From the IMG/VR virus record IMGVR_UViG_3300045988_144754: DNA of 64,000 bases. One strand, written 5' to 3'. The DNA comes from a virus. This document shows positions 2,698 to 54,096 of the stretch, piece by piece; the stretch's first letter is position 1; every line of letters starts with the position of its first letter. Below the pieces are notes generated by a model. It saw nothing but the letters and a program-made list of their open reading frames with translations, ran no database searches and had not been told where the DNA came from. Made by a program: the position numbers and the translations under genes.

Positions 2698-3750
2698 TCA
2701 AAGTAAAAGCGAACCATTAATATCGATCACTACTTTAAACGACAAAGCATACATGTTGGTGTTGGTGTCATCCTGGATAGTGGTCTCGTCTTCCAAAAGA
2801 ATGGTGCATGGAATCCAAATGCCGTGCGATAGAATCCATGCGTGTTCGCTCATGGCAAACTCGTGCAGATACCAGTCGAGCCAACTCTCGTCGAGCGGGT
2901 CAGTAGTGAGATTCCAAGTTTCCTGATCATTCTGCTTCTTGACCGACGCACGAGAGAAGGAGTTAAAAGTCTCCTGCTTTGCCACAATATACGATTCTGT
3001 TGTAAGCGCCATCTTACGGCTGTAGGATTTCGGCAGACTGACACTCTCAAGTACACCAAACAGATTGATGAAGCGTATGGTGTAACGGTTGCTCGCCTCT
3101 GTAGCAGGAAGCGCATAGAGTTGGTGAGTACCGACGGTCTGCAGTCCTTCCTGCGTAATCTCCTTAGAGACAGACGTGGGAGGAACCAGGGTCGGACTGT
3201 TACTGAGCAGTTGTTCCGTCTCGTAGGGTGTAGTATAAATAAAGGTGTCACCCACAACGACGGGTTGCGGCAAAGTGTTCGGCTTTCGGGTGAAAGAAAT
3301 GACTCCCTTACTGGGTCCAGACTGAAGGCGCACCATATCAGAGAAAGCACCCGCAATGCAGCGAAGGTTCGTGTTGCCGGTTTCGTCGGGCTCTTGAGGA
3401 TAAAACACCTCGCCTACATTGGTAAATATCTCACCATTGTTATCCATATATTCATCGTAGGCATGGACGTACCAGCTCACGAAAGGATAGGTTGTCGGCT
3501 CGGGAGTATATTTATAGGAGTCGAGTGCCGCACGCAAAGCTGACGATACATCAAGCGATACATCAGTGCCCTCTTTGGTGACGGGTTCATTGAGTTTTAT
3601 GACATCATAGCTGCCGTCATTGTCGAACACGACCTCTACGACGACACGATGAAAAGAAGGCGTATTCTCAAAAGCTGACGGAGAGATGGTAAAAGTAATC
3701 GGGTTGCCAGCAAGGATTGAACCAGATGTAAGTAAAATTTTCTGTGCCAT
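2698..3750 (-). CDS. hypothetical tail-associated protein
   Basis: 350-aa ORF between the ACP gene and the tail-fibre gene, same strand, compact spacing. Confidence 0.45.
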   Translation of the reverse strand: MAQKILLTSGSILAGNPITFTISPSAFENTPSFHRVVVEVVFDNDGSYDVIKLNEPVTKEGTDVSLDVSSALRAALDSYKYTPEPTTYPFVSWYVHAYDEYMDNNGEIFTNVGEVFYPQEPDETGNTNLRCIAGAFSDMVRLQSGPSKGVISFTRKPNTLPQPVVVGDTFIYTTPYETEQLLSNSPTLVPPTSVSKEITQEGLQTVGTHQLYALPATEASNRYTIRFINLFGVLESVSLPKSYSRKMALTTESYIVAKQETFNSFSRASVKKQNDQETWNLTTDPLDESWLDWYLHEFAMSEHAWILSHGIWIPCTILLEDETTIQDDTNTNMYALSFKVVIDINGSLLL

Positions 3751-3813
3751 ATCTATAGATAAAACAGGAGATGAATGTATGTGCTGAGATTTTTCTTGGG
3801 GCTACGAAAGTCG

Positions 3814-4062
3814 CTAAGACATTTTTTTCTCTACGATAGCTGTCACATCAGACACAAGTTGTAAGTCTTTTGCCTCTTCGGGCGAAATCTTGATATGGAA
3901 CATGGTTTCGGTCTGAAGAACGAGATCGAGAAAGTCGATAGACTCAAGAGCGAGATCATCACGCAGGTTGGAGCTGTCGGTCACTTCTGCTGTCGATGCC
4001 CAAGGTGTGCGCAGGCCTTCAACTATATTGAACACCCGCTGGCGAATATCTTCTTTGTTCAT
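3814..4062 (-). CDS. acpP: acyl carrier protein
   Basis: 82 aa. The motif DDLALESIDFLDLVL matches the ACP phosphopantetheine-attachment region (DLGADSLDTVELVM). Its start overlaps the KAS stop (ATGA). Confidence 0.7.
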   Translation of the reverse strand: MNKEDIRQRVFNIVEGLRTPWASTAEVTDSSNLRDDLALESIDFLDLVLQTETMFHIKISPEEAKDLQLVSDVTAIVEKKMS

Positions 4063-5273
4063 AATGATTGGAATTTAGAAATGATGAATGATGAATTGGT
4101 GCCTCCGAAGCCAAAGGCATTACAAAGAATATGGTGTGATAAGTACTCGCGTGACTGCATGACGAGATTGAGCTGTGGAAAAGCATTCTCGGCTGTGGTA
4201 GCCGCACCGAAGATAGTGTCTGTGTTGAGCATCATGGCGGCTTGAACGGCCTGCGATACACCAGCCATCCAGCACTCGTGACCCGTCATACCCTTGGTGG
4301 CTACGATATAAGGGCTCTCGGGGAACACCTTTCCGATGGCTTCTGCCTCTGCAGCATCGCCCTGCTCCGTACCTGTGGCATGGGCGAGGAGTACATCTAT
4401 CATTCCGGCATCGAGTCCAGCCGACTCTATGGCCTTAATCATTGCCACCTCTTCCTGATAAGCATCCGGGGTACAGATGCTTGTGCCGTTAGTGGAAAAG
4501 CCGTAGCCTGAAAGTTCTGCCACGGGCGAGACTTCATAATCCTCGAAACGCAAGCTGTCGGAAGGCTCAAGAATAACACAGGCTGCACCACCCGAAGGAG
4601 CAAGACCATTGCGGGCTTTGCCGAAAGGCTGCACCTTGTCGGGCGAGAAAACGCCCATGGCATCAAACGACAGCATGGAGAAGGGACCAGTCTCCTGTGC
4701 TCCAACGACAATCACCATGTCGGTTTGGCGCGCATCAAGAAGCATCTTGGCAAGACCGATGGCATGACCTCCTCCGGCACAAGCCCCGCTGACGGTAAGC
4801 GAGAGTCCTTTCAGTCCGTAGATAGAGGCGAGGCTCATGCTGACGGTGGAATTGAGTGTGCGGAACACTGCACCTGCCCCTAAACGTCGGGTGTCGCGCT
4901 GTGTAATGGCAGTGGTCATTGCCTGATAGTTGTCTCCCGCCGTAGAGTCGTTGCTGACGATGACCGATACATTGTGAGACTGCAAGAACTCGGGAAGAAT
5001 ATTGGCTTCCACCAGAGCCTCGTTGACGGCAGATAAGGAATATAGGGTCGGTTCGGAAAGACATTGCCGTTGACCCCTGGTGAGTTTTGAAAACTTCCAA
5101 GGGTTCGGATCATTTATCTTTCCGCACAGGTCGGACTGATAACCTTTCTCGCTGCGCGCGGGGTCGTGGTGCAGACCGCACTCTCCATACGCCAGCTTCT
5201 GTGCGACGGAAAAGGTATCGTTGCCAAGACTGGAAACAATACCTGTGCCTGTGATTAATATTTTTCTATCCAT
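4059..5273 (-). CDS. beta-ketoacyl-ACP synthase (FabF/FabB-like KAS)
   Basis: Active-site region GACAGGGHAIG, His motifs HATGTEQGD and KGMTGHECWMAG, and C-terminal NAFGFGGTNSSFII all match KAS I/II. I trimmed the start to the internal Met (MDRKILITGTGIVSSLGN), because the upstream extension overlaps the preceding gene. Confidence 0.8.
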   Translation of the reverse strand: MDRKILITGTGIVSSLGNDTFSVAQKLAYGECGLHHDPARSEKGYQSDLCGKINDPNPWKFSKLTRGQRQCLSEPTLYSLSAVNEALVEANILPEFLQSHNVSVIVSNDSTAGDNYQAMTTAITQRDTRRLGAGAVFRTLNSTVSMSLASIYGLKGLSLTVSGACAGGGHAIGLAKMLLDARQTDMVIVVGAQETGPFSMLSFDAMGVFSPDKVQPFGKARNGLAPSGGAACVILEPSDSLRFEDYEVSPVAELSGYGFSTNGTSICTPDAYQEEVAMIKAIESAGLDAGMIDVLLAHATGTEQGDAAEAEAIGKVFPESPYIVATKGMTGHECWMAGVSQAVQAAMMLNTDTIFGAATTAENAFPQLNLVMQSREYLSHHILCNAFGFGGTNSSFIISKFQSL

Positions 5274-9925: not shown

Positions 9926-11029
9926 TTAGAACATGAGTGGTGTGACGAATATCTTGCCGCCCTCCTGGTTGTTCTCGTAGCCGCCGGATTTGTCTGCAGC
10001 GGATGATGAGGGAGCGGTGGTGGAAGTGGAGGAGGACGCGGTGGTGTCGGCGGCTTCCTGAGCCTGCTTCTCGGCCTTGAGGAGGCGATAGACGGAATCG
10101 CGGAGCGAGATGGACTCGTTGTGCGCCAACAGTCGGGTAGCCTTGTCGAAGGAGATGACGGTGGTTCGCTCCACGAGGTAGGCAGTCATCAGTCGGCGCA
10201 CCTTGCGGAGGAGCTTGTCGCGGTCATCGGCGTGCTGCAGACGGGTGATGAGCTCGTCGCCGAACACGTCGGCTATGTATTCGTCCTGTATGTAGCGGAG
10301 GTCGGGCAACAGACGGATGAACTTGTCGCGGTTGTCGTAAACGTCGAGGTACTGCTGCAGGATGCTGCACGTGGGGATGAGGAGGTCGTGGTGCAGATAG
10401 TAGTACTTGCTCTCCTGCCACAACAGCACGATCTCCTCGATAGCTGCGAGGCGCTCGGTACTTTCGTCCTGTGGTATGTCGGATTTTCCGTCGTCAGGTA
10501 CTTCTGTACTTTCGTCCTTTGGTACTTCAGTACTTGCGCTGCCGTCTTTCGGGGCGGCTGTTTCGGCTGGCGTGTTGATGCTGACAGCCCAGTTTTCGAG
10601 AAGTATGAGGAGGTTGTTGAGCGACACCATGGCCTCTTTTTTATATCCCGCCACTCCCTTGTCGAGAAGTTTCTCTGTGGCTGGGTCATAGTCGGTAGAG
10701 GAGGCGATGTTGACGCCTGCGCCGTTGACCGAAAGGATTTGCTGGTAGGCGTATCGTGCCATAGCATCGTTGACCACCATACGCTGTGCGAGGACGAGGA
10801 GGACGCTCCATGGCTTCATGACATAGGTGCCGTCGGTCATCTGCTGATAGAAGCCGTCGCCGCCCAGGGTGGTGTAGTATTCGCAGAGCCGTGTGTAGAG
10901 CGGCTTACCCAACTTATCCTGCAGGAAGTCCTTCTCGCTGTTGTCGAGCACGCCCTGCAGGTTGGCTATCTCGTCCACGGCATTGCTGGGCAGGATGAGC
11001 CGGAGTTCTTGATTGGTGGAAAGTATCAT
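9926..11029 (-). CDS. hypothetical protein
   Basis: 367-aa ORF with an acidic Asp/Glu/Ser-rich middle region. Confidence 0.45.
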   Translation of the reverse strand: MILSTNQELRLILPSNAVDEIANLQGVLDNSEKDFLQDKLGKPLYTRLCEYYTTLGGDGFYQQMTDGTYVMKPWSVLLVLAQRMVVNDAMARYAYQQILSVNGAGVNIASSTDYDPATEKLLDKGVAGYKKEAMVSLNNLLILLENWAVSINTPAETAAPKDGSASTEVPKDESTEVPDDGKSDIPQDESTERLAAIEEIVLLWQESKYYYLHHDLLIPTCSILQQYLDVYDNRDKFIRLLPDLRYIQDEYIADVFGDELITRLQHADDRDKLLRKVRRLMTAYLVERTTVISFDKATRLLAHNESISLRDSVYRLLKAEKQAQEAADTTASSSTSTTAPSSSAADKSGGYENNQEGGKIFVTPLMF

Positions 11030-11100
11030 GATGTGTTGTGCTGTTATGTGCTGGGTGAAAAAAGATGTTGTTGCCAGGCGAAAGTCAGGGGAGGGGAGGG

Positions 11101-12894
11101 CTACTCCTGTCCCTGCTTCGTGACGCCTGTCTTCGAGTTGTCGAGGGTGGTAAGCACCTCACGGTCTATCTGCCATTCGAGGTGTGGGTCCCATTCATTG
11201 ATTTCGTCGGTTACCTCCAAGGCGCGGAGCATGAGCTGCTGCAATGGGGCAAACTGTATCTGCTTGACGAGGAAACGCTCGCGGAGGTCAGTGCCGCCCG
11301 ATGAGGTTGCGTCGCCTGGGGTGTTGCCAATGAGCTTGGAGTCGAGACCCATGGCGAAGAAGATGATGCTTGTGATTTCCTGCAGCTCGGTCTTCTCGGC
11401 TTGCGCTTGCGAGTTGGCCTTGCTCTCTATCTCCACAATCTCCCACGCCTTGTGCTCCTTGCCGTCGGTGCCGTTGAACACGGCAGAGATGAGCGCCTGA
11501 CCTGCATTGTCGGGATTGGAGAGCCACGTGTTGATGTCGCTGAACACCTCCTGCTGAAGCTGCGCCATGGTCTTGGTCTTCTTGTCGCCCTGCTGGGTGT
11601 AGAGGTTCTTGAGATATTCCTGGTGAATGTAGATGACGCGACCGATGATGTTGGAGTTGCGCTTACGGGTGAGTCGGTCGTCGACGATGGTGAAGGCATA
11701 CTCGTAGATGCTTCCGGCAAAGATGCTGTGCCAAAGGGCATCGGCATAGTAGGGACCGCCGTAGTCGCGTGGCGACATGATGAAACGGGTGGGGCGGTCC
11801 TTGCGGCTTACCCGCTGCTGACGGGCACGGCGCACGGCGGCCTGGAGGTCTTTCACTGCCGACACGGTGGGAAGATAGGGCACGGCGGCGATGCTCTTGT
11901 CGAGGTCGGCGAACTGAGCGGTGCGGTCTTGCGTGGGGTCGAGCCACTGGTTTGACAAGTAGGCATAGTTGATGCGATAGTTGGTGTCCTGTCGCTCCAG
12001 TCGGGTGGTGAAGATGCTGCGGTGTTTCAGTCCCACTACCTTGGGTGTCCACTGGCTTGTGGGCACGGGTTTGCCTTCGTCGGAGAGTTGTCGCTGGTTG
12101 AGTTGCAGCTCGACGAAGCATTGCGACATGAGCGCCATGTCGCCCGCCATGTTGAGGAAGGTCTGCATCAGGTCGTTGTCCTTCATGAATTTCTTCACCT
12201 CGCGGTTGGTCTGTTCCCACTTGGCGAGGGCGTCCTTCAGGGCTTTCATCTCGTCGCTGTCCTTGGGCTGGCCTTCGGTCTGCTGACTGACGGAATGCAG
12301 AGGGTCGTCGGGGTCGCCGCTGATGCCGTTCTGCTGTTGCTCCTGAAGGTCGGCTTTCTCCTGTGCCTTGAGGTCGGCTATCTGTCCGCGGAGCAGTGTG
12401 CCGGCCGATGCGTAGGGGATGTATTTCTCGGTGATGTTGCCGCCTACGTACTGGGTGTAGTGGTACTTGGGCGAGGGTCCGTGGCCTACGAGTATCTTCT
12501 TGATGAAGTCGACACCGGCTGCGGTGAAGGGCGACATTCGTGAGAGAATCCAGACGAGGTTGGGCAGTCGGTTGCCCACGCCCCATTCCATGTAGCCCAG
12601 TCCGGGTGTTCCCACGCCGTTGGGCTTGGCCTTGTTCTCGCCGCCGCTGGAGGCGAAGATGGTGGAAATCTGTCGTCGTGCTCCCGAAGAGGTGGTCGAG
12701 CTGCCCTGCGCTGTCATGCCGGCTGTCTCGAAGAGCATGGAGCGGACGTAATCGTTCCATGAAAAGACTTGAGCGCCGCTGTTGGGATTGATGAAAGCAG
12801 AGGGCGACACGGCCACATATCCATCGCGCTTCAGTTCCTCACTACGATCTTGGAACTGCTGTAAGTTGGTAACTCTGTTCTTGTTGCGTGACAT
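11101..12894 (-). CDS. hypothetical virion protein (portal-sized; assignment uncertain)
   Basis: 597-aa ORF. Preceded by a TAnnTTTG promoter-like box in the duplicated module at 12925..13010. Confidence 0.4.
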   Translation of the reverse strand: MSRNKNRVTNLQQFQDRSEELKRDGYVAVSPSAFINPNSGAQVFSWNDYVRSMLFETAGMTAQGSSTTSSGARRQISTIFASSGGENKAKPNGVGTPGLGYMEWGVGNRLPNLVWILSRMSPFTAAGVDFIKKILVGHGPSPKYHYTQYVGGNITEKYIPYASAGTLLRGQIADLKAQEKADLQEQQQNGISGDPDDPLHSVSQQTEGQPKDSDEMKALKDALAKWEQTNREVKKFMKDNDLMQTFLNMAGDMALMSQCFVELQLNQRQLSDEGKPVPTSQWTPKVVGLKHRSIFTTRLERQDTNYRINYAYLSNQWLDPTQDRTAQFADLDKSIAAVPYLPTVSAVKDLQAAVRRARQQRVSRKDRPTRFIMSPRDYGGPYYADALWHSIFAGSIYEYAFTIVDDRLTRKRNSNIIGRVIYIHQEYLKNLYTQQGDKKTKTMAQLQQEVFSDINTWLSNPDNAGQALISAVFNGTDGKEHKAWEIVEIESKANSQAQAEKTELQEITSIIFFAMGLDSKLIGNTPGDATSSGGTDLRERFLVKQIQFAPLQQLMLRALEVTDEINEWDPHLEWQIDREVLTTLDNSKTGVTKQGQE

Positions 12895-12924
12895 ATTCTG
12901 TTATCCTTTTTTAGGGTTAATATA

Positions 12925-13010
12925 TGTTGTTGCTTTTTTCGACTACAAAAGTAGGGAGAATTATTTTAATGGTACGGACATGAGTCAGAACAGCGAGAGC
13001 TGCACGGCTC
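12925..13010 (-). repeat. duplicated promoter module carrying a 3' relic of a PF01555-type methyltransferase gene (copy of 14822..14905)
   Basis: About 80% identity to the 3' end plus downstream region of 14877..15647. Encodes ...AVQLSLF* (compare AQLTLF*). Contains TACTTTTG, a TAnnTTTG -7 box. Confidence 0.55.
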
Positions 13011-13246
13011 GGTTGCCTCTTTCGGCGTACCGCGTCTGAGCGAAAAAACTGCGGTCCCGTCGGTTCTCCCTTCCCTTTTCCGCCCACTTCATAGAATTGG
13101 AAAGTTCGAGAGTGTTGGTAGTCTTCGGGAATGGAGCCGTGCGAGCCGCAGTTAATCTAACAATATGTTTCACGTTTTTGCATTATGGCCTATATCAAGA
13201 TGTATTCGGGGTGTCGTGTTGCGTCCGCCTACATATCGTAGTCGTA

Positions 13247-14065
13247 CTATCGTTTGATATTCCACATGTGCTCTGCAGGACCAACGAGCACGTCTATGTT
13301 TGCGCCCTGCTTCAGAGCCACCGTTTCCACCCATTTAAGCTGAATAAACTGCTGCGGGCTAAGATTCATCTCGCTCATATACGCCTTATCTGCCACAGCC
13401 TTTTGGCGCTCGGCCTTCTCGCGAGCCACCTGAACCTCATATTCACGTTCCTGCGTCTGCTTGGCCTGTACCATCTTTGCCGTTCGGTTCATTTCGGCAA
13501 GCTGCTCCTTGTTGGGTGTTGCCTTGCCGATGATAACGTCCTTGATGATGACGGGCATCGGCTTGTGCTTGGAGAGGGCAGCCACGTAATCCTGCATCTG
13601 CTTCAGAATCTTCTTGTCGATGGTGCTCAATACCTGACGGTTGGACATCAAGTCGAACGGACTGTACTGTGAGATATGGTCTCTGACAAGATTACAGAAA
13701 TAGTTGTAGAGGTTGGTGTCAAACCAGTCGCGTCCATAGTTCTGCAACAGCACGGGCGACTTGCCTTGCTCCACCTGAGTGACTATGACAGAATGGAAGT
13801 CGAGCGGCGTGTTATCGTCGGAGAAGATGTCGTCAAGAACAACCTCGTGGCGTACCGGAACAATCTTGAATGTTTCGGCATGAGTACTCAGGGCACACCA
13901 TGTCAAGCCACTCTGTACTGGGTCGTTGTCAACACCTCCGTGTCCGAAGAACCATGGTTTCTTCACCAACACGGTTTCCTCGTCGGCATCGGGCGACACA
14001 AAACGGCACGAGGATAACATCACTACTGCGACAAGCGCAAAAAGAATTGAAAATAATTTTTTCAT
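13247..14065 (-). CDS. lipoprotein
   Basis: Start trimmed to MKKLFSILFALVAVVMLSSC. This is a signal peptide with an LSSC lipobox. Confidence 0.55.
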   Translation of the reverse strand: MKKLFSILFALVAVVMLSSCRFVSPDADEETVLVKKPWFFGHGGVDNDPVQSGLTWCALSTHAETFKIVPVRHEVVLDDIFSDDNTPLDFHSVIVTQVEQGKSPVLLQNYGRDWFDTNLYNYFCNLVRDHISQYSPFDLMSNRQVLSTIDKKILKQMQDYVAALSKHKPMPVIIKDVIIGKATPNKEQLAEMNRTAKMVQAKQTQEREYEVQVAREKAERQKAVADKAYMSEMNLSPQQFIQLKWVETVALKQGANIDVLVGPAEHMWNIKR

Positions 14066-14135
14066 AATTGTTTTTTGTTTATATTGATTCATTAAAATCC
14101 TTATATATGACAATCGTACATTACACCCGCTGCCT

Positions 14136-14690
14136 TTACGACTCAATCTCGGGAGGGTTGCCACCAGGCTTCTGCTCGCCGCCACCCGTGGTGCCGGAAT
14201 CGCCTGTGCCGGGAGCTGCGGGAGCATCCGTTGCAGCAGCATTGCCCACTCGCTTGAACGAGCCGTGCTGTGCGAAGGCAGCGTTGAACTTCTTGGAGAA
14301 GTCGATGGCAACACCTGCGGTGAGGTCCTTTGTGGTGAGGTCGGCGGCGGTAATCTCTCGGTTCACGTCAACGTCCTCGCCTGCTGCCTTACGTGCTTCG
14401 AGCTTCGCCTTGAGCTGGCTCTGAGTGAGCGAGCCGCTGACGGTAGGACGTACCGTCATGCCCTCGGCAGACACCTGTACCTTGGTGCCCAGTGCCAACA
14501 GAAGCGGCAGCTTTTTCTCCAACTGCGTCATCACGGCCATTACGTCCGCTGCGCCTACTGTAGAGTCCTGCGCCATGTAGTCGCAAAACTCAGGAAATGA
14601 CATCTGCTGCAAGTCAACGATCTGTGCGCTTGCCAGCTTCTCCTGTGTGAGGTGGTTCACACGAACTGCAATTCTTGTTTTAATTGCCAT
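14136..14690 (-). CDS. HU-like DNA-binding protein (Bacteroidetes type)
   Basis: N-terminus MAIKTRIAVRVNHLTQEKLA...FPEFCDYMAQDSTVGAADVMAVMTQLEKKLPLLLALGTKVQV resembles Bacteroidetes HU-family proteins. Low-complexity Gly/Thr-rich tail. Confidence 0.5.
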   Translation of the reverse strand: MAIKTRIAVRVNHLTQEKLASAQIVDLQQMSFPEFCDYMAQDSTVGAADVMAVMTQLEKKLPLLLALGTKVQVSAEGMTVRPTVSGSLTQSQLKAKLEARKAAGEDVDVNREITAADLTTKDLTAGVAIDFSKKFNAAFAQHGSFKRVGNAAATDAPAAPGTGDSGTTGGGEQKPGGNPPEIES

Positions 14691-14762
14691 AGGTTATTTT
14701 TTGTTTGGGCGTTAATACTTTCCTCTCTATTTTTACCCGATTCTACAAAGAGGCTTTTTGCA

Positions 14763-14822
14763 ATGTGCTAACACTTTTCATCAAATGTGCTAACACTTTT
14801 CGTCAAATGTGCTAACACATTG
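14763..14822 (-). promoter_or_regulatory. three tandem 22-bp sites AATGTGctaaCAC (GTG-N4-CAC inverted-repeat cores)
   Basis: Three units at exact 22-bp spacing in the 5' leader of the operon starting at 14690. Same site family as 40356..40437. Confidence 0.5.
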
Positions 14823-14905
14823 CTTTTTTTCGACTACAAATGTAGGGAGAAAATTTTGAGCGGTGTGGACATAAATTCAGAACAGCGTGAGCTGTGCTTG
14901 CTCCA
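14822..14905 (-). promoter_or_regulatory. promoter module downstream of the methyltransferase gene (TACATTTG -7 box)
   Basis: Matches the Bacteroidetes TAnnTTTG consensus. Duplicated at 12925..13010. Confidence 0.45.
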
Positions 14906-15647
14906 ACTTGATGCGCTTGCAAGCCTTGTCGTAATACTCCTTGTTGAGCTCGAAGCCGATGAAGTTGCGCTTCTCTTTTATGCAAGCAATGGCGGTGGTG
15001 CCGCTGCCCATGCAGTTGTCTAATATGGTGTCGCCCTCGTTGGAGTAGGTACGGATGAGGTACTGGATGAGAGCGACAGGTTTTTGGGTGGGGTGGAAGC
15101 TGTTGTGAATATCCCTCTGAAATAAGACAATATCGGTTGGATATTTTTCGTCGGTTATAATATCCTTCACTTTGCCATAATTTCCGTAACATCTGTTGGT
15201 TTGCTCTTTCTCTTGCTTTCCTCTGCTGTGATTGCGTTCATGTGGAAGACATTTGCACATTTGTGGATGATAGGTGGGCTGTCCGTCGTAGAAAACGGAA
15301 ATAATCTCCGTTTGCTTTAGAGGCATCTTCTTTGTGTTCAAAAAGCCAGTTGTACGGCATTTATCCCACGTGATATTATAGCGCCACATCTTTTCATTGC
15401 TCATCATCAGTTTTGCCGTGAACATACCCTGTCCGAACAATATTATAGCCGCATTGGGCTTACTGATACGAAGATATTGCTCCCATAAAGAATCAAGTGG
15501 AATAATACTATCCCATCCTCCTCCTTCGCTCTGCTTATTGAGGACACCATACGGCAAATCACACACAATGCAATCCACGCTTCCGTCGGGAATCCTTTTC
15601 ATTCCTTCGAGGCAGTCTTCATTATATATCTTGTTCAGCTCTATCAT
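14877..15647 (-). CDS. DNA methyltransferase, N6-adenine/N4-cytosine (PF01555-like, beta class)
   Basis: CIVCDLPYG (DPPY-type motif IV) near the N-terminus and NCMGSGTTAIA (motif I) near the C-terminus. Paralog of 42701..43450. Confidence 0.8.
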   Translation of the reverse strand: MIELNKIYNEDCLEGMKRIPDGSVDCIVCDLPYGVLNKQSEGGGWDSIIPLDSLWEQYLRISKPNAAIILFGQGMFTAKLMMSNEKMWRYNITWDKCRTTGFLNTKKMPLKQTEIISVFYDGQPTYHPQMCKCLPHERNHSRGKQEKEQTNRCYGNYGKVKDIITDEKYPTDIVLFQRDIHNSFHPTQKPVALIQYLIRTYSNEGDTILDNCMGSGTTAIACIKEKRNFIGFELNKEYYDKACKRIKLEQAQLTLF

Positions 15648-15654
15648 TGTCTTT

Positions 15655-16689
15655 TTACTTTTTCCTTATCTTTTCCATTTCCTCATTCTCCACCGTCAGG
15701 CGTTCCAGGTGCTCCAGGACGAGGGAATAACTCTGGTTGTTCACCTGGTCCTCCGTCAGACCGGCATACTTCTGCATGGTGGCGGTGGTGGCGGTGTATA
15801 TCTCCAAGGGCGTGGAGGGCTTCTGCGACTTGATGGGCTGCACCTTGAACACATGGCGATAACGATGAGCGAGGGTGTGCATCACGCCCGTCCACCAGAA
15901 GAGTATCACCTGCCATGCCGTTTCGGGGAAATCGCGGAAATAGGACTGGTTCGTCTCCCACTGGTTCAACTCATAGTGGAAGTCGTGTTTCACCATGCCC
16001 GTGTTGCTGTCCACATAGTCGGTCGTGCCGTTGAAGATGGTGGCGAGAAACATCGTCCGGGCAGCGTTCACGTTCTTCATCTGCCGCTGCATCTGCTCGT
16101 CGGTGAAAGTGCCGCGCTGCTGCATCTTCAAGAGGCTGTTGCTCAGTCGGGTGTAGGTCTGCATCATGTCGGAGGCGAAGCGATACTGCGCCCACGAAAA
16201 TCCGTCGAGGTCGTTGGCGGGTCCGCTGAACACCTTCTTGCGTCGCCACCATGCGCGGCGTCGCCGGATGACAGGGTAGGGGAAGCGGGTGAGAAAGGCA
16301 CCGTTCTCGTTGTCTATCCAGTCGAGCAAGCCTGCTCCCTGAGCGATGTACTCTGCCGACTTTCGGGCGTCGGTCTTCGCCTTGGGCGTCAGCCAATAGT
16401 TGATCTGCCACAGATACAGCGGAAAGGTGTCGTTGTCCTCGTCGTCCTGCATACGGCAGAGGTAATACTGCTCGCTGATGTCGAGGCGAGAGTCGGGCAG
16501 CGCCACTATCTCCAAGCCCGACAGGGCGAAGAAGATCGCCACCTTCACGTTGCGCATGTCGAAGGGGTGGTATCTGTCCTGCCGCTCCACCTGCTCGCGT
16601 ATCACGTCGGCTATCAGCTCCAGTTGTTCCGTAGTGCAGAGATTCCAATGTCGGGGAAGATGTAAGTCTATTTTTTTTGGATTGTTCAT
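15655..16689 (-). CDS. hypothetical protein
   Basis: 344-aa ORF. Confidence 0.45.
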   Translation of the reverse strand: MNNPKKIDLHLPRHWNLCTTEQLELIADVIREQVERQDRYHPFDMRNVKVAIFFALSGLEIVALPDSRLDISEQYYLCRMQDDEDNDTFPLYLWQINYWLTPKAKTDARKSAEYIAQGAGLLDWIDNENGAFLTRFPYPVIRRRRAWWRRKKVFSGPANDLDGFSWAQYRFASDMMQTYTRLSNSLLKMQQRGTFTDEQMQRQMKNVNAARTMFLATIFNGTTDYVDSNTGMVKHDFHYELNQWETNQSYFRDFPETAWQVILFWWTGVMHTLAHRYRHVFKVQPIKSQKPSTPLEIYTATTATMQKYAGLTEDQVNNQSYSLVLEHLERLTVENEEMEKIRKK

Positions 16690-16704
16690 TTCTACAGAAT
16701 CCTA

Positions 16705-16895
16705 AGTTTTTATCCCAAAAATGCCAAAATTGGACTATTTTAGTACAGAAAAAATCTAAAATTGTACGATTTTATCCAAAAAACGACAAAATTAGACTAT
16801 TTTCGTACAGAAAAAAATCCAAAATTGGACTATTTTATCCCAAAAACGCCAAAATTGGACTATTTTTAATCCAGAAAAATCCAAAAATGGATGGG
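16705..16895. repeat. tandem array of about six 30-bp units (three ~60-bp units)
   Basis: ccaaaaatgccaaaattggactatttt is repeated with minor variation. Sits between the endolysin stop and the next gene start. Confidence 0.7.
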
Positions 16896-16909
16896 AAAGT
16901 TATCAAAAA

Positions 16910-17464
16910 CTACCAGGTGATTTCTCTCCCTCGGTTGTCGACGAGCGAGCCGTATCGGATGCCGTCGAGCCGACGAAGCCATCCGGCGAGGAACCGCTTC
17001 TGTGACGGTTTGTTCTTCGCCAACCGCTCGTAGTACAACTTGCGGCGAGCCTTGAGGCGAGAGAAGAAAGCTTCGGGGTTCTGTCGGTTCAGGGCGGCGA
17101 GGGTGTTCTTTCCCATGATGCCGTCGGCTTTCACACCCAGTATGGCTTGGGTGATGGTGACGGCGGGCGTACCACTGATCCACAGCCAGTCCACAAGGAG
17201 GTTGGCGATGCTCTGGTCATTGATCTCGTCGGCACGGCAGCGACGCCAGTAGCATCGGCGCAGGATTTCCGTAGCATCAGCATCTGAGATAAGTCGGAGG
17301 TCGCGCACGTCTATCCGTCCGTCGCCGTTCTTGTCGTACCCCTGCTGTCGCCATGTGCCGATGGTCACACCCTTGTTGGTGGCACCGCCACGGTCTTTCG
17401 GGTCGTTCACGAAACCGCCCTCAAACGAGAGAATGAATTTAGCTAAAGGTTCAATCTTTACCAT
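16910..17464 (-). CDS. endolysin (GH108 N-acetylmuramidase with PG_binding_3-like domain)
   Basis: ILSFEGGFVNDPKDRGGATNKGVT matches the GH108 signature. The C-terminal region resembles a peptidoglycan-binding domain. Confidence 0.75.
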   Translation of the reverse strand: MVKIEPLAKFILSFEGGFVNDPKDRGGATNKGVTIGTWRQQGYDKNGDGRIDVRDLRLISDADATEILRRCYWRRCRADEINDQSIANLLVDWLWISGTPAVTITQAILGVKADGIMGKNTLAALNRQNPEAFFSRLKARRKLYYERLAKNKPSQKRFLAGWLRRLDGIRYGSLVDNRGREITW

Positions 17465-20376: not shown

Positions 20377-21285
20377 TTATCGCATGGCTTCCTCAAGAGT
20401 TCTAATATAAGGTATGGACTCGTTGCGCACAATATCAAGAAAAAGTTGTGCCGACCGCTTCATCGGCACGTCCTTCATCCAGTGGACATTGCTCATCAGG
20501 TCGTGCTCAAGCCCCACGATGGGACGGACGGTAAGGGTAGGGTGGTTCTTTAGGTACAATTTAGGCATGAAAGTGACACAATGGGATTCTTCCACGATGG
20601 CAAGGTCCTCGTTGGGGTCGCTCACAATACATTTTACATTCAGTTTCATAAAATCGTATTTCAGATATTTCTGAAAGGTATTGAACACCCTTTCGCCTAC
20701 ATCGGGCATAATCACGTTGTGCCTTAACAAATCCTCGTATGACACCTTTTCCAGTCGGGACAAAGGATGGGTGTCCCGCATCATCGCATAGATACGGAAA
20801 GGAATACAGGGCTCAGACTCGATGCCCTCATTCTTGTAGGCAGTGTTCAGAGTAAAGGCGAGGTCGAGGGAGTGGCTTCTCAACAGGTGGTTCAGACTCG
20901 TCGCCTTGGTAAACTCGGCGTTGATTCTTACATTCGGGTATCGTTCCATGAAGATAAGTGCCGCCATCCGAATATAAGGTGCGATAAAAGAGCCTACACC
21001 TATCCTCAGCTCGCCCACAAGGCAGTTGTTGAGCGCGTTGATTTGTTCCTTGCAGTCGTCCGTCTGCTTCAGTATCTCCTTGGCGCGAGGCAAAAGCGCC
21101 TCGCCACTCTCAGTGAGCATAATGCTGTGCGAGGTGCGGATAAGCAACTTGCACCTCAGTTCATCCTCAAGAGCCTTGATGTGTTGACTGATGGCGGACT
21201 GAGTGACACAACAGCGCATGGCTGCAATACTGAACGATAAAGTTTCGGCTACATATACAAATGAGCGCAAATGACGAAGTTCCAT
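20377..21285 (-). CDS. LysR-family transcriptional regulator
   Basis: N-terminal HTH MELRHLRSFVYVAETLSFSIAA...QSAISQHIKALEDELRCKLLIRTSHSIMLTESGEALL is a canonical LysR substrate-binding-type regulator. 302 aa. Confidence 0.8.
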   Translation of the reverse strand: MELRHLRSFVYVAETLSFSIAAMRCCVTQSAISQHIKALEDELRCKLLIRTSHSIMLTESGEALLPRAKEILKQTDDCKEQINALNNCLVGELRIGVGSFIAPYIRMAALIFMERYPNVRINAEFTKATSLNHLLRSHSLDLAFTLNTAYKNEGIESEPCIPFRIYAMMRDTHPLSRLEKVSYEDLLRHNVIMPDVGERVFNTFQKYLKYDFMKLNVKCIVSDPNEDLAIVEESHCVTFMPKLYLKNHPTLTVRPIVGLEHDLMSNVHWMKDVPMKRSAQLFLDIVRNESIPYIRTLEEAMR

Positions 21286-25364: not shown

Positions 25365-25569
25365 ACGGGTTTAAAAATTAAGATTGTAAATGTATGTTAT
25401 CCTGTAAACAATTCTTTTTACCAAAGAATGTACTATGTCAAATGTTTCTGTTTGCAAAGGTAATAGATTGAAGGTAGGCAAAAAGGACAAAAAAACGCCG
25501 CTATCCTCACGGACAACGACGTTGACAACTAAATACTATTTCTGATATTTAACGAATATATCTTAAAAT

Positions 25570-27988: not shown

Positions 27989-28885
27989 TTAAATGTCAAA
28001 CTCATCACAATACTGGCGCATACGCTCGATGATGATGTTGCGTATCTTTTCGCCAATAATCTTTGCATTGGGATGCGGCGTGCCCGTCTTGCCATGGAAG
28101 CGAAGGTCAAGAATATGGCTCCAGTCGGAAAGCGTGTAGGTATATGCCACAACGGTATAGGTGTCGAGAGGCAGAACACCTCGTGCGTCCTGCGGCTTCA
28201 AGCCGGACTTCAGAAGTCGGTTGTAGCCCCACTCACACACTCGACATACAAGGCCATACACAAAGCGCTGCCAACGACTGCCTTCTGCGTGCCAATGCGG
28301 ACGTGCTATCTGCACGCCTCCCTTCTTCTCTAAATTGCAATAGCGTGTACTCTGTTCGGCGATGCTGTTGGGCGACGTGCGGTTGAGCTCACGCGATGTA
28401 CTTATCTGCGTGGTTACTACCATCGTCATGCGGATAATAGAGAATGCCTCCTCACACTCGTACTTCAGTGCCTTCTCGATAAACTCGTCTTCGCTGACAC
28501 CATACTGACTAAGCGCATTCATCATGTCCTCGTGCTCAAGCGCAAACTGAGTATTGGTACTGAACCATACCTTATGATTCTTGGTGGCATAGTTGATGTA
28601 AGGCGATGCCTCCAGATATGCCCAGATGTGGTTAGGAAGACCCCTTTCGTTGGGCATAAAGAAATAGACTGTGCCGTGACGAAACATCGAGCGATGTCCG
28701 CTGTCCCAGAAGTCCTTGCAACGTACCTCGTCACGCGTCTGGATGAAATTTTTCACTTCCTCTTCGGTCAATCCTTCTCCGGGCTGCTTGCCCTTTGCCT
28801 TGTAGCATATTCTGCCCACTCTTGCTATATGTTGTGCAAGAGTAGTCTGCTGCCACCATTCTACTTGTGGTTCGATGAATTTCAT
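27989..28885 (-). CDS. thyX: flavin-dependent thymidylate synthase (ThyX-like)
   Basis: GHRSMFRHG matches the ThyX HxSVxEH motif. RTSPNSIAEQSTRY matches the RHRxxSxxxxSxRY signature. Confidence 0.6.
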   Translation of the reverse strand: MKFIEPQVEWWQQTTLAQHIARVGRICYKAKGKQPGEGLTEEEVKNFIQTRDEVRCKDFWDSGHRSMFRHGTVYFFMPNERGLPNHIWAYLEASPYINYATKNHKVWFSTNTQFALEHEDMMNALSQYGVSEDEFIEKALKYECEEAFSIIRMTMVVTTQISTSRELNRTSPNSIAEQSTRYCNLEKKGGVQIARPHWHAEGSRWQRFVYGLVCRVCEWGYNRLLKSGLKPQDARGVLPLDTYTVVAYTYTLSDWSHILDLRFHGKTGTPHPNAKIIGEKIRNIIIERMRQYCDEFDI

Positions 28886-39269: not shown

Positions 39270-39433
39270 TGTTGTGTTTGATTTTTAATGTGTGATGTAA
39301 ATGTGAAGTGTTATCCTGTTTTGATTAAGATACGATGCAAAGGTAATGAAAGGAGAAAAAACGGGTGGGACATACTTTTTTCTCCATGCGGACAGGCAGA
39401 GAGGTATGTCCCAATCGTTTTTGGATGATTTCG

Positions 39434-40540: not shown

Positions 40541-41392
40541 ATGTTAAACGAACAACTGCAGAAAAAGGTAAAACAGTCGATAAAACTCCTGCAGAGTGTG
40601 CAGAAGCGATACGACGGCGAGATAGAGATAGCATACTCGGGCGGTAAGGACTCCGACGTGCTCCTTCAACTGGCGAAAGAGGCCGGCATCAAGTATCGGG
40701 CCATATACAAGAATACGACCATCGACCCGCCAGGCACGTTGGGGCACGTCAGGGAGATGGGAGTGGAGATACTGAGGGCCAAGACTTCCTTCTTTCATCT
40801 CGTGGCGCAGAAAGGATTTCCATCTCGCTTTACTCGTTTCTGTTGTGAAAAACTGAAGGAATATAAGGTGCTCGACAAAAGTATTATCGGCGTGCGCAAG
40901 GCTGAGAGCCGGAAACGAAACGAAATATACAACGAGCCGACAGAGTGCCGATACTACGGAGCGAAGAAAGAGGAAAATCACGTAGAACAGATTTATCCTA
41001 TTCTGGAATGGACCGATGAGGACGTGCGCGACTTCATTATAGACAGAAAGTTGAAACTCGCACCCATTTATTACAATTCGGGGGGGCAAATCGACGTGTC
41101 GAAACGTCTCGGCTGCATGTGCTGCCCTCTCGCATCAAGGCGCAAGCGCATTATCGAGTTTCAGAAATATCCCAAGATAGCAAAGGCGTATCTCCGTGCG
41201 GGGCAACGATTTATGGAAACGCATCCTGACAGCAAGGCGTGCCAGAGGTACGACAACGTTTACGAATGGTTCACCCGCGACGTGTTTTACAGCTCCAATG
41301 CAGATTGGAACAAGGTAAGCACAGGGCTGTTCGGTAAGCCGGACTTCAAGAAGTTCTTGGAGGATAAGTTCGGTATTGACTTGACATTATAA
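40541..41392 (+). CDS. PAPS reductase-family protein (phosphoadenosine phosphosulfate reductase / DndC-like PP-loop ATPase)
   Basis: PP-loop SGGKDS, a RFCCEKLKE motif, and ILEWTDEDVRDFI, the PLxxWTxxDVWxYI signature of the CysH family. Confidence 0.7.
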   Translation: MLNEQLQKKVKQSIKLLQSVQKRYDGEIEIAYSGGKDSDVLLQLAKEAGIKYRAIYKNTTIDPPGTLGHVREMGVEILRAKTSFFHLVAQKGFPSRFTRFCCEKLKEYKVLDKSIIGVRKAESRKRNEIYNEPTECRYYGAKKEENHVEQIYPILEWTDEDVRDFIIDRKLKLAPIYYNSGGQIDVSKRLGCMCCPLASRRKRIIEFQKYPKIAKAYLRAGQRFMETHPDSKACQRYDNVYEWFTRDVFYSSNADWNKVSTGLFGKPDFKKFLEDKFGIDLTL

Positions 41393-42700: not shown

Positions 42701-43450
42701 ATGATAGAACTGAATAAGATATATAATGAAGACTGCCTGGAAGGGATGAAAAGGATTCCGGACGGGAGTGTGGATTGCATCGTGTGCGATTTGCCATATG
42801 GCACTACCGCTTGTGCTTGGGATAGCGTTCTTCCGTTTGATAAGTTGTGGGAGCAATACAGAAGAATTACAAAACGAAACGCTCCTATTGTTCTGTTCGG
42901 AAATGAACCTTTTAGCACATTTCTAAGAGTCTCAAATATTAAGTATTGGAAATATGACTGGATTTGGGACAAGAAAATGAAAGGGGGTTTCTTGAACGCA
43001 AAGAAAAGACCCCTCAAGCAGTATGAAAATATATCTGTTTTCAGTTATGGTGATTGCATCTACAATCCTCAAATGACTAAAGGTGTATTTAGAAACAAAA
43101 AGTCGTATAATAATAGAGAGGGAAATGGGGATGGCGTGTATCGTAAGTTTGGAAACATTGATGTAAAAAATGACATTTACTATCCTTCAAACATTTTGGA
43201 GTATAGCAATGCCGCACAGAAAGGCAAGATCCATCCCACACAAAAGCCCGTAGATCTCATTCAGTACCTCATCCGTACCTACTCCAATGAGGGCGACACC
43301 ATATTAGACAACTGCATGGGTAGCGGCACAACTGCCATTGCAGCCATCCGCGAGAAGCGTAACTTCATCGGCTTCGAGCTCAATAAGGAGTATTACGACA
43401 AGGCTTGCAAGCGCATTAAATTGGAGATGGCGCAGCCGACCCTCTTCTAA
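42701..43450 (+). CDS. DNA methyltransferase, N6-adenine/N4-cytosine (PF01555-like)
   Basis: The first 34 aa and last 60 aa are nearly identical to the 14877..15647 protein. Motifs CDLPYG and MGSGTT. Confidence 0.8.
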   Translation: MIELNKIYNEDCLEGMKRIPDGSVDCIVCDLPYGTTACAWDSVLPFDKLWEQYRRITKRNAPIVLFGNEPFSTFLRVSNIKYWKYDWIWDKKMKGGFLNAKKRPLKQYENISVFSYGDCIYNPQMTKGVFRNKKSYNNREGNGDGVYRKFGNIDVKNDIYYPSNILEYSNAAQKGKIHPTQKPVDLIQYLIRTYSNEGDTILDNCMGSGTTAIAAIREKRNFIGFELNKEYYDKACKRIKLEMAQPTLF

Positions 43451-43715: not shown

Positions 43716-43745
43716 GAAACACAACACAAAATCAGGATAACAACA

Positions 43746-46565: not shown

Positions 46566-47192
46566 TTACAAGAACACTGGCAGTCTGCGCCACACGCCAC
46601 CATTCGGCTGAAACTCCTCCTGCCATTCCCGATATTCCACTTCAAACTTTGCACCATAAAAAGCCAAACCTTTGAGATGAAGGCTCTCGATGAATTTCTC
46701 CTGCTCCTCACGAGTCATAAAGTCATTAGGCATGAGGATGATGCGGTTGCTACGGACATGGATGAAGAACTCTGGCGCAAAATCTCGCTTCGTCAGCATC
46801 TTTTTAATCGCCGCATAGTCGCACTTGTTTTTAGGCGAAAAGTTTATGCCATCCACATAGGTAAAGAGTTGATTGTAGTGGACCATTACTTCCTCGTTGA
46901 GAAACATCCATCTACCAGAAGTGTAGATATATAGCTGCTTGATGTTAGGATAATCATGGCGCAGGTGTGAGCATATATCTATGATACCTGTCACATAGAA
47001 TGGGTCTCCACCAGTGAGCATAACGGTATGTGCAGCCTTCAGCTCCTCTACGGTAGCCACTGGCACCGTATCGAGGTCGTACTGCTTGTTGCAGCAAAAC
47101 GGACAAGAGTTACCACACCATCTGTTAATCATCAAATGAATGGCTCCCTTATCGGCTCCCGGCTCGTCAGTATATTTACGTTTTGTTTCCAT
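46566..47192 (-). CDS. radical SAM 4Fe-4S protein (NrdG/QueE/PflA-activase-like)
   Basis: CGNSCPFC is a CxxxCxxC cluster, followed by TGGDPF. Confidence 0.6.
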   Translation of the reverse strand: METKRKYTDEPGADKGAIHLMINRWCGNSCPFCCNKQYDLDTVPVATVEELKAAHTVMLTGGDPFYVTGIIDICSHLRHDYPNIKQLYIYTSGRWMFLNEEVMVHYNQLFTYVDGINFSPKNKCDYAAIKKMLTKRDFAPEFFIHVRSNRIILMPNDFMTREEQEKFIESLHLKGLAFYGAKFEVEYREWQEEFQPNGGVWRRLPVFL

Positions 47193-52779: not shown

Positions 52780-54096
52780 TCAGTTCTCATTCTTCCTCTC
52801 CATATTCTCCTTGAACATTTCTCCGAAACCATCCCAATAATGAGCGTCCATCCATTCGGGCGAGGATAAAAACTGCTCATACATCATTGTCGCAGGTATC
52901 GTCCGTAGGTATTTCTCGCAAGCCTTAACGTCTTTGTCCCACAAATCCATCCGCTCCATTTCTATCTGAAAATACGTCTTGAGGAACATTGCCGCCTCAT
53001 GTGTCGGTGGCAGGTCGAATTGAAGGAATAAGGCATTGTCGGAGTCGTTTGCCTTGAGGAACTTGCTCACGGCATCGTCCTTGAGGAAATAGCGGTCAGA
53101 CACTTCCTCTTCGAGCACGTCTTCCAATCGGGTAAGCAGCTCGAAAGGTTCTGGGAACTGATAGTCGAATGCCACGTCTCGGCGCATGGAGAGGCAGAAA
53201 ACACGGTCGCGGTTTTGTGGCACACCGTAGTTCTTGGCGTTGAGTCGCGTCCAACGGCTCACATAGCCGAGCGACGAGAGTTTGTCGAGCCACTTCTGAA
53301 AGTCTGGCAAGAACTTCTGGCTTACCAGTGCCGCCACGTTCTCCTGCAAGAGATACTTCGGGCGAAGCACCTCCACAGCATCCGCCACACGCCAAAGCAG
53401 TGCGCTTCGGGTGTCGCTGCCCTCCTGCAAGCCCATTTGCTTGCCCGCCTGACTGATGTCCTGGCAAGGCGAGGAATAGGTGAAGAGGTCTACTTCGCGG
53501 CCTTCGAGCGAGCTTTCCACCTCGTGCCAGTCAATCTTGGTGATGTCGCCCAGGGCGCAGTCGGCAAACTGAGGGAAGACGAGGTTGTGCATCTGACAGG
53601 CGTATTTGTCGATGTCGCTCCATCCTATACATGTCCATCGGAAGTCGGGATGCCACTCGCGGAGCACATCGGCTGCCATAAGCTGCGAGTCGTAGCCGGA
53701 GAACGTGGTAAGGAATATCTTCTCCTCGTTCTTGTTGGCTGCGGTGGGCGGCAGGGCGGGTAATGTGTCTTCGAGGTCGTCGAAGAGCGAGAGTTGCTTT
53801 TGCTTACGAGGTTTGGGCGTAGGATAGAAAAGTTGCTCGTAGATGTGGGCCAACACGTCCACCACGATGCTGTTTCCGGCTTGCTTGTACTGCTGTGAGG
53901 CAGATATAGCCATGTCTTCGGGCTTGCCCTTGCCTTTCCAGTCGGGCAGACGTTCGGCTGCTTGAGCATTGCTGCTCTGCATCGTGCCGATTACATTGTC
54001 ACGAACGCCCATCAGACGAAAACACTCCTTGGGTGTGAGCTTGCGGATGGCATAGCTCTTGATGGTGCGGTCGGTGAAATTGAGTTTTGTAATCAT
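52780..54096 (-). CDS. DNA (cytosine-5)-methyltransferase with permuted motif order
   Basis: N-terminus carries motif IX (IRKLTPKECFRLMG) and motif X (QYKQAGNSIVVDVL). Then come motifs I (FSGYDS), IV (SSPCQDIS), VI (LQENVAAL) and VIII (QNRDRVFCL). Confidence 0.65.
   Translation of the reverse strand: MITKLNFTDRTIKSYAIRKLTPKECFRLMGVRDNVIGTMQSSNAQAAERLPDWKGKGKPEDMAISASQQYKQAGNSIVVDVLAHIYEQLFYPTPKPRKQKQLSLFDDLEDTLPALPPTAANKNEEKIFLTTFSGYDSQLMAADVLREWHPDFRWTCIGWSDIDKYACQMHNLVFPQFADCALGDITKIDWHEVESSLEGREVDLFTYSSPCQDISQAGKQMGLQEGSDTRSALLWRVADAVEVLRPKYLLQENVAALVSQKFLPDFQKWLDKLSSLGYVSRWTRLNAKNYGVPQNRDRVFCLSMRRDVAFDYQFPEPFELLTRLEDVLEEEVSDRYFLKDDAVSKFLKANDSDNALFLQFDLPPTHEAAMFLKTYFQIEMERMDLWDKDVKACEKYLRTIPATMMYEQFLSSPEWMDAHYWDGFGEMFKENMERKNEN

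Follow-up and report, generated by a model that had tools for sequence, protein, structure and literature searches.

The segment studied here lies in a 352-nt non-coding stretch of the window, that is, of the whole 64,000 nucleotides of viral DNA that were analysed. Every gene in this region is on the minus strand, and the repeat described below was read on that strand. In that direction, the order is a 344-aa gene, a PF01555 methylase gene, the genes for an HU-HIG protein and an SPFH lipoprotein, the non-coding stretch and a 597-aa gene. The features are as follows:

15655..16689, minus strand, 344-aa gene, the first in the local order
14877..15647, minus strand, intact PF01555 (N6_N4) DNA methylase gene of 256 aa (Pfam E 2.2e-32; PHROG 67), product ending in KRIKLEQAQLTLF before the stop
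14820..14894, minus strand, copy B of the repeat, comprising the last 18 nt of the PF01555 methylase gene with the stop (14894..14877), 5 nt, the predicted promoter P_B and 17 nt shared with copy A
14837..14871, minus strand, predicted promoter P_B, with TGTCC at 14871..14867 and the -7 box TACATTTG at 14844..14837
14762..14827, minus strand, three 22-nt repeats in tandem, located after P_B in the leader of the HU-like gene; the near-palindrome AATGTGTTAGCACATT is present in each
14136..14690, minus strand, HU-HIG DNA-binding protein gene (PF18291)
13247..14065, minus strand, SPFH/Band-7 lipoprotein gene (PF01145), with the probable true start at MKKLFSILFALVAVVMLSSC
13043..13151, minus strand, imperfect hairpin of 103 nt (13151..13049) followed by T6 (13048..13043)
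12985..13025, minus strand, dead methylase remnant of 41 nt (38 nt and a TGA stop), from a D12-class (PF02086) 3′ end and reading ...(A)ERGNRAVQLSLF-stop
12946..12980, minus strand, predicted promoter P_A of the portal gene, with TGTCC at 12980..12976, a 22-nt spacer and the -7 box TACTTTTG at 12953..12946
12930..12945, minus strand, 16 nt following the -7 box (TAGTCGAAAAAAGCAA), common to copy B, which has one extra A
12895..12929, minus strand, remainder of the 5′ leader of the portal gene, found in copy A only and variable (pi 0.081), containing AAGGATAAC
11101..12894, minus strand, 597-aa gene downstream of P_A, putative portal gene

No Pfam or PHROG family matched the 597-aa protein. By tblastn it was 22-28% identical (E 1e-11) to the annotated portals of Polaribacter phage Leef_1 and a Microcystis phage, and it is probably the portal protein; the gene is so called below. 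For the SPFH gene, a 355-aa frame with a GTG start (13247..14314) was rejected, as it overlaps the HU-like gene by 179 nt; the start is most likely at 14065, where the predicted product has a lipoprotein signal peptide. The 22-nt tandem repeats look like operators and accompany P_B also in the relatives L033, L251 and others. Genomes with a 160-aa variant of the HU-like protein had a different triple repeat (ACGATGCCCATTGTT; e.g. L001 3090..3160), so that the type of repeat seems to follow the type of DNA-binding protein, suggesting auto-regulation.

The hairpin (RNA fold -43.1 kcal/mol, z -2.0) was the most conserved segment of the region, with a pi of 0.014 as compared with 0.026-0.036 in the flanking coding sequence. 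A plain terminator would usually be shorter; together with the T6 run the hairpin would likely act as the intrinsic terminator closing the HU-like/SPFH unit. No Rfam family was found in 12500..15200, the hairpin included, and a built-in terminator scan did not return it because its stem and loop exceed the limits of that scan. None of its four variable positions was usable for covariation. In relatives such as L032 a hairpin, a T-run, the promoter and the portal gene follow one another in this order without the stub.

Alignment of copy A (13002..12930) with copy B (14894..14820) gave 62 matches in 76 columns (82%), including 4 gap columns. The local score was 46; when the intergenic region (352 nt) was shuffled 200 times, scores were 15.7 ± 2.0 with a maximum of 22. 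The repeat was also recovered by a repeat search and by MAFFT, with two copies in the window. This bore out the sequence-only reading, in which a repeat with a gene tail and a promoter had been placed upstream of the 597-aa gene. As two small corrections to its estimate of about 85 bp, the length came to 73-76 nt and the coding tail to only 18 nt plus the stop. Exactly two occurrences in the 64 kb were counted both for a 29-nt core (TCTCCCTACNTTTGTAGTCGAAAAAAGCA; 0.00 expected) and for the 18-nt tail (CAGCTCNCGCTGTTCTGA; 0.24 expected), and the two copies agree at 17 of 18 tail bases when the stop codon is counted in. Low-complexity sequence was absent except for one A6 run.

Both copies carry an exact TAnnTTTG box, as had been read at the outset. 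A scan for TGTCC-N(20-30)-TAnnTTTG found 7 sites in the window, as compared with 0.35 expected from block shuffles; the spacer was exactly 22 nt in all seven, and all were intergenic, each facing a gene (first base of TGTCC and strand: 2598-, 12980-, 14871-, 17539-, 25489-, 39372- and 39407+). The pair at 39372 and 39407 is divergent. What the seven have in common is the boxes only, and the pair formed by copies A and B goes beyond that: in the stretch that surrounds and follows the -7 box (TTCTCCCTACNTTTGTAGTCGAAAAAAGCAA), these two agree at 30 of 31 bases, which are lacking in the other five. Since they share far more than the boxes of the class, copies A and B are true homologues. Among 77 relatives with a full-length portal locus, 67 had the motif, always with N22, at most 105 nt upstream of the portal gene, with at least 4 unrelated spacer sequences; at the remaining 10 loci the 344-aa gene directly abuts the portal gene, and the HU-like/SPFH accessory unit (13247..14690, minus strand) is absent there. 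The TGTCC box, the -7 box and the 16 nt of 12930..12945 were all invariant in eight sequences of the close clade. The homology between A and B ends with these 16 nt, which probably hold the transcription start and the first transcribed bases. To judge from the recurrence and conservation of the motif, P_A would restart transcription of the portal gene and of the structural genes behind it, and it is a diverged homologue of P_B, which would drive the HU-like/SPFH unit. In L033 a promoter of the copy B type follows an unrelated gene without any methylase tail, which indicates that the promoter module begins at ATGTCC and that promoter and tail are separable. TGTCC-N22-TAnnTTTG may be used for annotating transcription units in this phage family.

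It was also noticed that a motif, (C/A)AGGATAAC, recurs 5-41 nt upstream of start codons (25396..25404 and 39310..39318 on the minus strand, 43733..43741 on the plus strand) and is seen in the portal leaders of many relatives. Exact copies of CAGGATAAC numbered 3, as compared with 0.43 expected; in the portal leader of the window AAGGATAAC occupies 12901..12909 (minus strand).

Upstream of P_A, a start-less frame ends in ...RAVQLSLF at the TGA 12987..12985, and the PF01555 gene at 14877..15647 ends in ...AQLTLF, both as originally described. The stub had been taken for the 3′ end of a third PF01555 methylase gene, and in this the sequence-only reading has to be corrected. BLAST of copy A against the fetched loci revealed that the similarity of the stub to a real gene end continues past 13002, to 13025; it matched the 3′ end of an intact 376-aa methylase gene at 39 of 42 nt (93%) in L001 and L071 and at 40 of 43 nt in L002. 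The stub peptide, ...AERGNRAVQLSLF-stop, corresponds to the end of this D12-class protein, ...HQTERGNRTVQLTLF-stop, and fits the D12 tail pattern ...ERGNR[TA]VQL[TS]LF-stop; about 25 genes of the D12 family end in ERGNRA[IV]QLSLF-stop, comparable with ERGNRAVQLSLF-stop in the stub. The PF01555 tail (AAGCGCATCAAGTTGGAGCAAGC[AG], reading KEYYDKACKRIKLEQAQLTLF-stop) is nearly invariant in about 25 relatives and has only its final 18 nt in common with the stub; at 13025..13003 the stub has CCGAAAGAGGCAACCGAGCCGTG and the PF01555 tail has AAGCGCATCAAGTTGGAGCAAGCA, with no resemblance and no alignment between them. As it matches the D12 tail and not the PF01555 tail, the stub is identified, from these sequence matches, as a remnant of a D12-class (PF02086) DNA adenine methylase gene. 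The proposal of a gene stub fused to a duplicated promoter thus stood as regards the fusion to a promoter homologous with P_B, but not as regards the parent. No other pieces of a D12 gene were found in the window, where tblastn of the D12 protein matched residues 365-377 only, and the 220-nt stretch that separates the SPFH gene from the stub had no likeness to any D12 locus or other relative.

The stub varied at 8 of its 41 columns among eight distinct clade sequences (pi 0.078, as compared with 0.026-0.036 in the flanking coding sequence) and was the least conserved segment. In L002, L003, L004 and L252 there is an in-frame TGA eleven codons before the end of the stub, and the last residues are QLSQF. 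The stub is, on this pattern of variation, non-functional and without constraint.

The D12-class parent in L001 (1898..3028, 376 aa) matched PF02086 (E 5e-13, in the N-terminal motif region only) and PHROG 56, 'DNA methyltransferase' (E 3e-28); no PF01555 match and no PDB relative by sequence were found for this protein. The gene is intact in L001, L002, L253 and L071 and frameshifted in L251, and in sibling phages it fills the slot that the PF01555 gene holds in the window. In L251 the frameshift splits it (3258..4377) in the central region. An alternative frame of the central D12 region in L001 (2406..2756) resembles the downstream frame of L251, and the long L001 frame may therefore not be true throughout. 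About 25 further members of the D12 family, located elsewhere in related phages, end in ...ERGNRAIQLSLF-stop with differing codons. PF01555 genes across the family had about 92% nucleotide identity in the first 90 nt and about 95% in the last 66 nt, with a mean of 72% (57-90%) in the body. These genes are mosaic in the phage family and occupy two slots, one on either side of the portal gene (in L030-L080 just downstream of it), and in L050 two are in tandem. A second PF01555 gene of the window (42701..43450) ends in AQPTLF-stop. Other modification or nucleotide genes of the window encode a C5 cytosine methylase, a PAPS-reductase-domain protein, a protein with a weak radical-SAM match and ThyX, and there is also a LysR-type regulator; together these genes are at 52780..54096 (minus), 40541..41392 (plus), 46566..47192 (minus), 27989..28885 (minus) and 20377..21285 (minus).

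For comparison with related phages, 80 loci around homologues of the 597-aa protein were fetched from IMG/VR, where 138 relatives were found (77 of the 80 being the full-length portal loci considered above), and five human-gut metagenome contigs of about 100 kb were added. Megablast of 11000..17000 against GenBank phages gave no match, which points to a lineage without a close sequenced isolate. The window belongs to a close clade of ten genomes, in which the portal protein is 96-98% identical. Copy A was present in all ten, whereas the copy B slot, following the 344-aa gene, varied: 1) the window, L003, L004, L143, L250 and L252 have the PF01555 gene, P_B and an HU gene of 184 aa, 2) L251 has the D12 gene, P_B and an HU gene of 184 aa, and 3) L001, L002 and L253 have the D12 gene, a different promoter of the TGTCC class and an HU gene of 160 aa, so that copy A is present there and the P_B copy absent. 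In L251 the D12 methylase is directly followed by P_B, and the direct repeat with copy A extends to 97 nt (score 68), since each of the two sites has the complete D12 tail. The SPFH protein was 93-97% identical in amino acids in phages whose portal protein was only 73-75% identical to that of the window (L022, L032, L035, L038, L040, L049, L050, L078 and L080, at about 3550..4400), which indicates recent lateral exchange of the SPFH gene.

In the comparison with related phages, which had been recommended for deciding the ancestral copy, neither collection yielded an intermediate genome. An intact D12 methylase gene directly upstream of P_A was seen in none of the viral contigs, metagenome contigs and 80 portal loci, and no contig had the HU-SPFH unit popped out among viral contigs searched with TACNTTTGTAGTCGAAAAAA and metagenome contigs searched with GTTCTGACTCATGTCCGTACC. 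These searches, and one of the 80 portal loci with the D12 protein, returned only window-like layouts. A scan of the viral contigs for CTGTTCTGAN{2,6}ATGTCC gave 120 matches, mostly by chance, of which only L143 and L144 were relevant. Modular shuffling inside this phage had been proposed from the window itself, and the sibling genomes agree with it: to judge from their gene content, the region is clearly a cassette hot spot, in which a methylase gene, an HU-like gene and an SPFH gene would be exchanged with breakpoints at the methylase tail.

The tail itself required attention, as QL[ST]LF is found at the very C-terminus of both PF01555 and PF02086 (D12) methylases, as QLTLF-stop or QLSLF-stop, and is preserved by the stub (window 14877..14894 and 12985..13002; L001 3011..3028; gene ends in L206-L241; at window 43433..43450 as QPTLF-stop). 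In the D12 family it comes after a polar linker and is kept with varied codons (CAACTTTCATTATTTTAA, CAGCTTTCGCTCTTCTAA and others), and among the best 120 PF01555 homologue clusters from a database of 5.8 billion proteins, a Q[LP]x[L]F ending was present in 87. Because this ending is common to both families, the match between RAVQLSLF and AQLTLF, which had been read as a sign that copy A was copied from copy B, is no evidence for it. The pentapeptide coincides with the consensus for binding to the bacterial beta clamp, QL(S/D)LF, which is usually C-terminal (PMC9690074, citing Dalrymple 2001). The methylase tails are like it in having QL[ST]LF at the extreme C-terminus, and unlike it in frequently having T in place of S or D; QP[TS]LF variants also occur commonly. 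An AF2 monomer model placed the tail at the end of the C-terminal helix and not in a core strand (pLDDT about 71), and an assignment of QLTLF to strand beta-3 of the methylase fold was dropped on this ground. A literature search found no report of clamp-binding bacterial or phage methylases. By analogy, we tentatively propose, as an idea that is rather less likely than likely to be right, that QL[ST]LF in these two unrelated families (PF01555 of the beta class and PF02086 of the alpha class) is a candidate beta-sliding-clamp-binding motif, and that tail and promoter double as a homology arm for methylase cassette swaps. If so, orphan methylases would travel with the host replisome and methylate phage DNA during its synthesis, much as DNMT1 does with PCNA, but in bacteria. 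A clamp-binding-like C-terminus in two methylase families thus offers a testable idea for methylase access to newly replicated DNA.

Taken together, the flagged segment is with good confidence a composite that recombination has left behind in a hot spot of cassette exchange, in an uncultured human-gut phage of about 100 kb. Read 5′ to 3′ on the minus strand, it consists of a terminator-like hairpin with its U-run, the 41-nt D12 remnant and, four bases on, the predicted TGTCC-N22-TAnnTTTG promoter of the family. The history that we prefer is truncation in place: a D12 methylase gene would once have been the immediate upstream neighbour of the portal promoter, and all but its last 41 nt would have been lost, either by deletion or when it recombined illegitimately with a relative that had the HU-SPFH-terminator unit. 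This order of events is inferred from a contrast in divergence. There are 3-4 differences from D12 tails in the 41 positions of the stub (7-10%), and 9-13 differences from P_B in the 27 unconstrained positions of the promoter (33-48%; Fisher p 0.0002-0.026 relative to the stub). As the stub is closer to D12 tails than the promoter is to P_B, truncation in place is weakly favoured, in a contrast that is biased because the tail on the copy B side stays under selection while both spacers drift, and that is partly expected even if tail and promoter were duplicated together.

Such a joint duplication is the main alternative for the order of events, a possible but clearly less probable one. The last 41 nt of the D12 gene and the promoter would then have been copied as one piece from the B slot to the front of the portal gene, maybe by unequal crossover when the HU-SPFH unit was gained, and the lineage of the window would later have exchanged D12 for PF01555. 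That the 97-nt repeat in L251 includes the full stub, that the distance from the stub end to TGTCC is nearly equal (4 nt at A, 5 nt at B) and that the 16 nt after the -7 box are identical would all be accounted for in this way; the lower divergence of the stub relative to the promoter parts would not, and the occurrence of P_B in L033 without any methylase tail shows that the modules need not travel together.

Another proposal, which would add to truncation in place rather than replace it, is that the methylase tail and promoter, with the hairpin at copy A, form an active recombination cassette of the kind known as PeSLs, through which neighbouring accessory genes would be gained, lost and exchanged; we consider this possible but rather unlikely. 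The three combinations of methylase, promoter and HU gene among ten near-identical genomes, with breakpoints at the shared tail, are in its favour, as are the high identity of PF01555 gene ends (92-95%) relative to the body (72%), the near-identity of the SPFH protein in phages with distant portal proteins and the PeSL precedent itself (PMC2839356). However, each genome has only two copies of high similarity, the viral and metagenome contigs yielded no pop-out product, and the conserved gene ends also coincide with catalytic motifs.

Far less probable is the original interpretation, in which the stub is a third PF01555 3′ end and copy A was copied directly from copy B inside this phage. The 17 of 18 tail bases and 62 of 76 columns in common gave it its appeal, yet in the 23 nt that precede the 18-mer the agreement is with the D12 tail and not with the near-invariant PF01555 tail, the QL[ST]LF ending belongs to both methylase families, and L001, L002 and L253 have copy A without a P_B copy. 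Less credible still is a likeness of A and B without common descent, due only to QLxLF codons and promoter-class boxes. The D12 tail motif is indeed conserved as protein with varied codons, and TGTCC and TAnnTTTG do recur in seven otherwise dissimilar promoters, but the 30 of 31 bases of TTCTCCCTACNTTTGTAGTCGAAAAAAGCAA are missing from the other five members of the class, and the stub, which has no start codon and is not part of any gene, corresponds over 41 nt to the tail of a real one. Equally implausible is that the stub ends a functional small gene with a clamp-binding-like QLSLF tail (a 62-codon frame at 12985..13173 with a GTG start), for although this frame is open in the window, L001, L143, L249, L250, L251 and L253, it has the in-frame TGA and QLSQF ending in L002, L003, L004 and L252, crosses the conserved hairpin and U-run, has no PHROG match and includes the least conserved segment.

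The segment, a composite of hairpin, remnant and promoter, is a real but ordinary scar of phage mosaicism and cassette shuffling, of a sort common in phage genomes. In itself it matters little, and the promoter architecture and the tail common to two methylase families are of more use. It does provide a well-bounded example of swaps of accessory cassettes (methylases, HU-like and SPFH genes) around the portal gene in an abundant uncultured gut phage lineage, with the promoter kept in front of an essential gene after the swaps.

Gene remnants and 'morons' occur at mosaic joints of tailed-phage genomes (the Hendrix/Juhala concept). The HU-SPFH unit is like a moron in that it has its own predicted promoter (P_B), its genes and a terminator-like hairpin, which would act together, and in that it lies between genes, those of the 344-aa protein and the portal, that are adjacent in L053, L055, L065 and others. 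A truncated gene end marks the joint here, as at the joints of morons and mosaics. Unlike in a moron, the remnant is fused to a second, homologous promoter, so that the HU-SPFH unit is bracketed by direct repeats of 75-97 nt.

The Bacteroidota promoter consensus consists of a -33 TTTG and a -7 TAnnTTTG (TAHHTTTG) element, the -33 element being weak in Flavobacterium (PMC6847099). P_A and P_B resemble this housekeeping promoter in that the -7 box is exact and neither of its two free positions is G (TACTTTTG and TACATTTG); the boxes are correctly placed, 52 and 147 nt upstream of the start codons. They differ from it upstream, where neither has the sigma-ABfr -33 element, TTTG at 19-21 nt from the -7 box, and TGTCC is present instead at about -39 to -35, with a fixed distance of 22 nt; the TGTCC box was specific to this phage family in the data examined. 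Judged by promoter type, the host is probably a member of the Bacteroidales. A sigma70-type match (CTGACT-17-AATAAT, 12988..12960) was set aside as irrelevant for a Bacteroidota-type system.

PeSLs of T4-type phages are short regulatory cassettes between accessory genes in hyperplastic regions; they carry sigma70-type early promoters, are present in many copies and have been shown experimentally to work and to form mini-circles (PMC2839356, PMC4122927). Recombination between them explains insertions, deletions and replacements among close relatives (Arbiol et al. 2010, PMC2839356; Comeau et al. 2014, PMC4122927). The repeat described here differs from PeSLs in that the promoter is of the Bacteroidota type, only two close copies are present per genome and not many dispersed near-identical ones (TACNTTTGTAGTCGAAAAAA occurs 1-2 times per whole viral contig), and copy B has a gene tail, not a stem-loop, upstream: at copy A a hairpin with T6 lies about 60 nt upstream of TGTCC, and at copy B that place is taken by coding sequence. 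In role, however, the two are alike, as the repeat would likewise be a short regulatory cassette between accessory genes.
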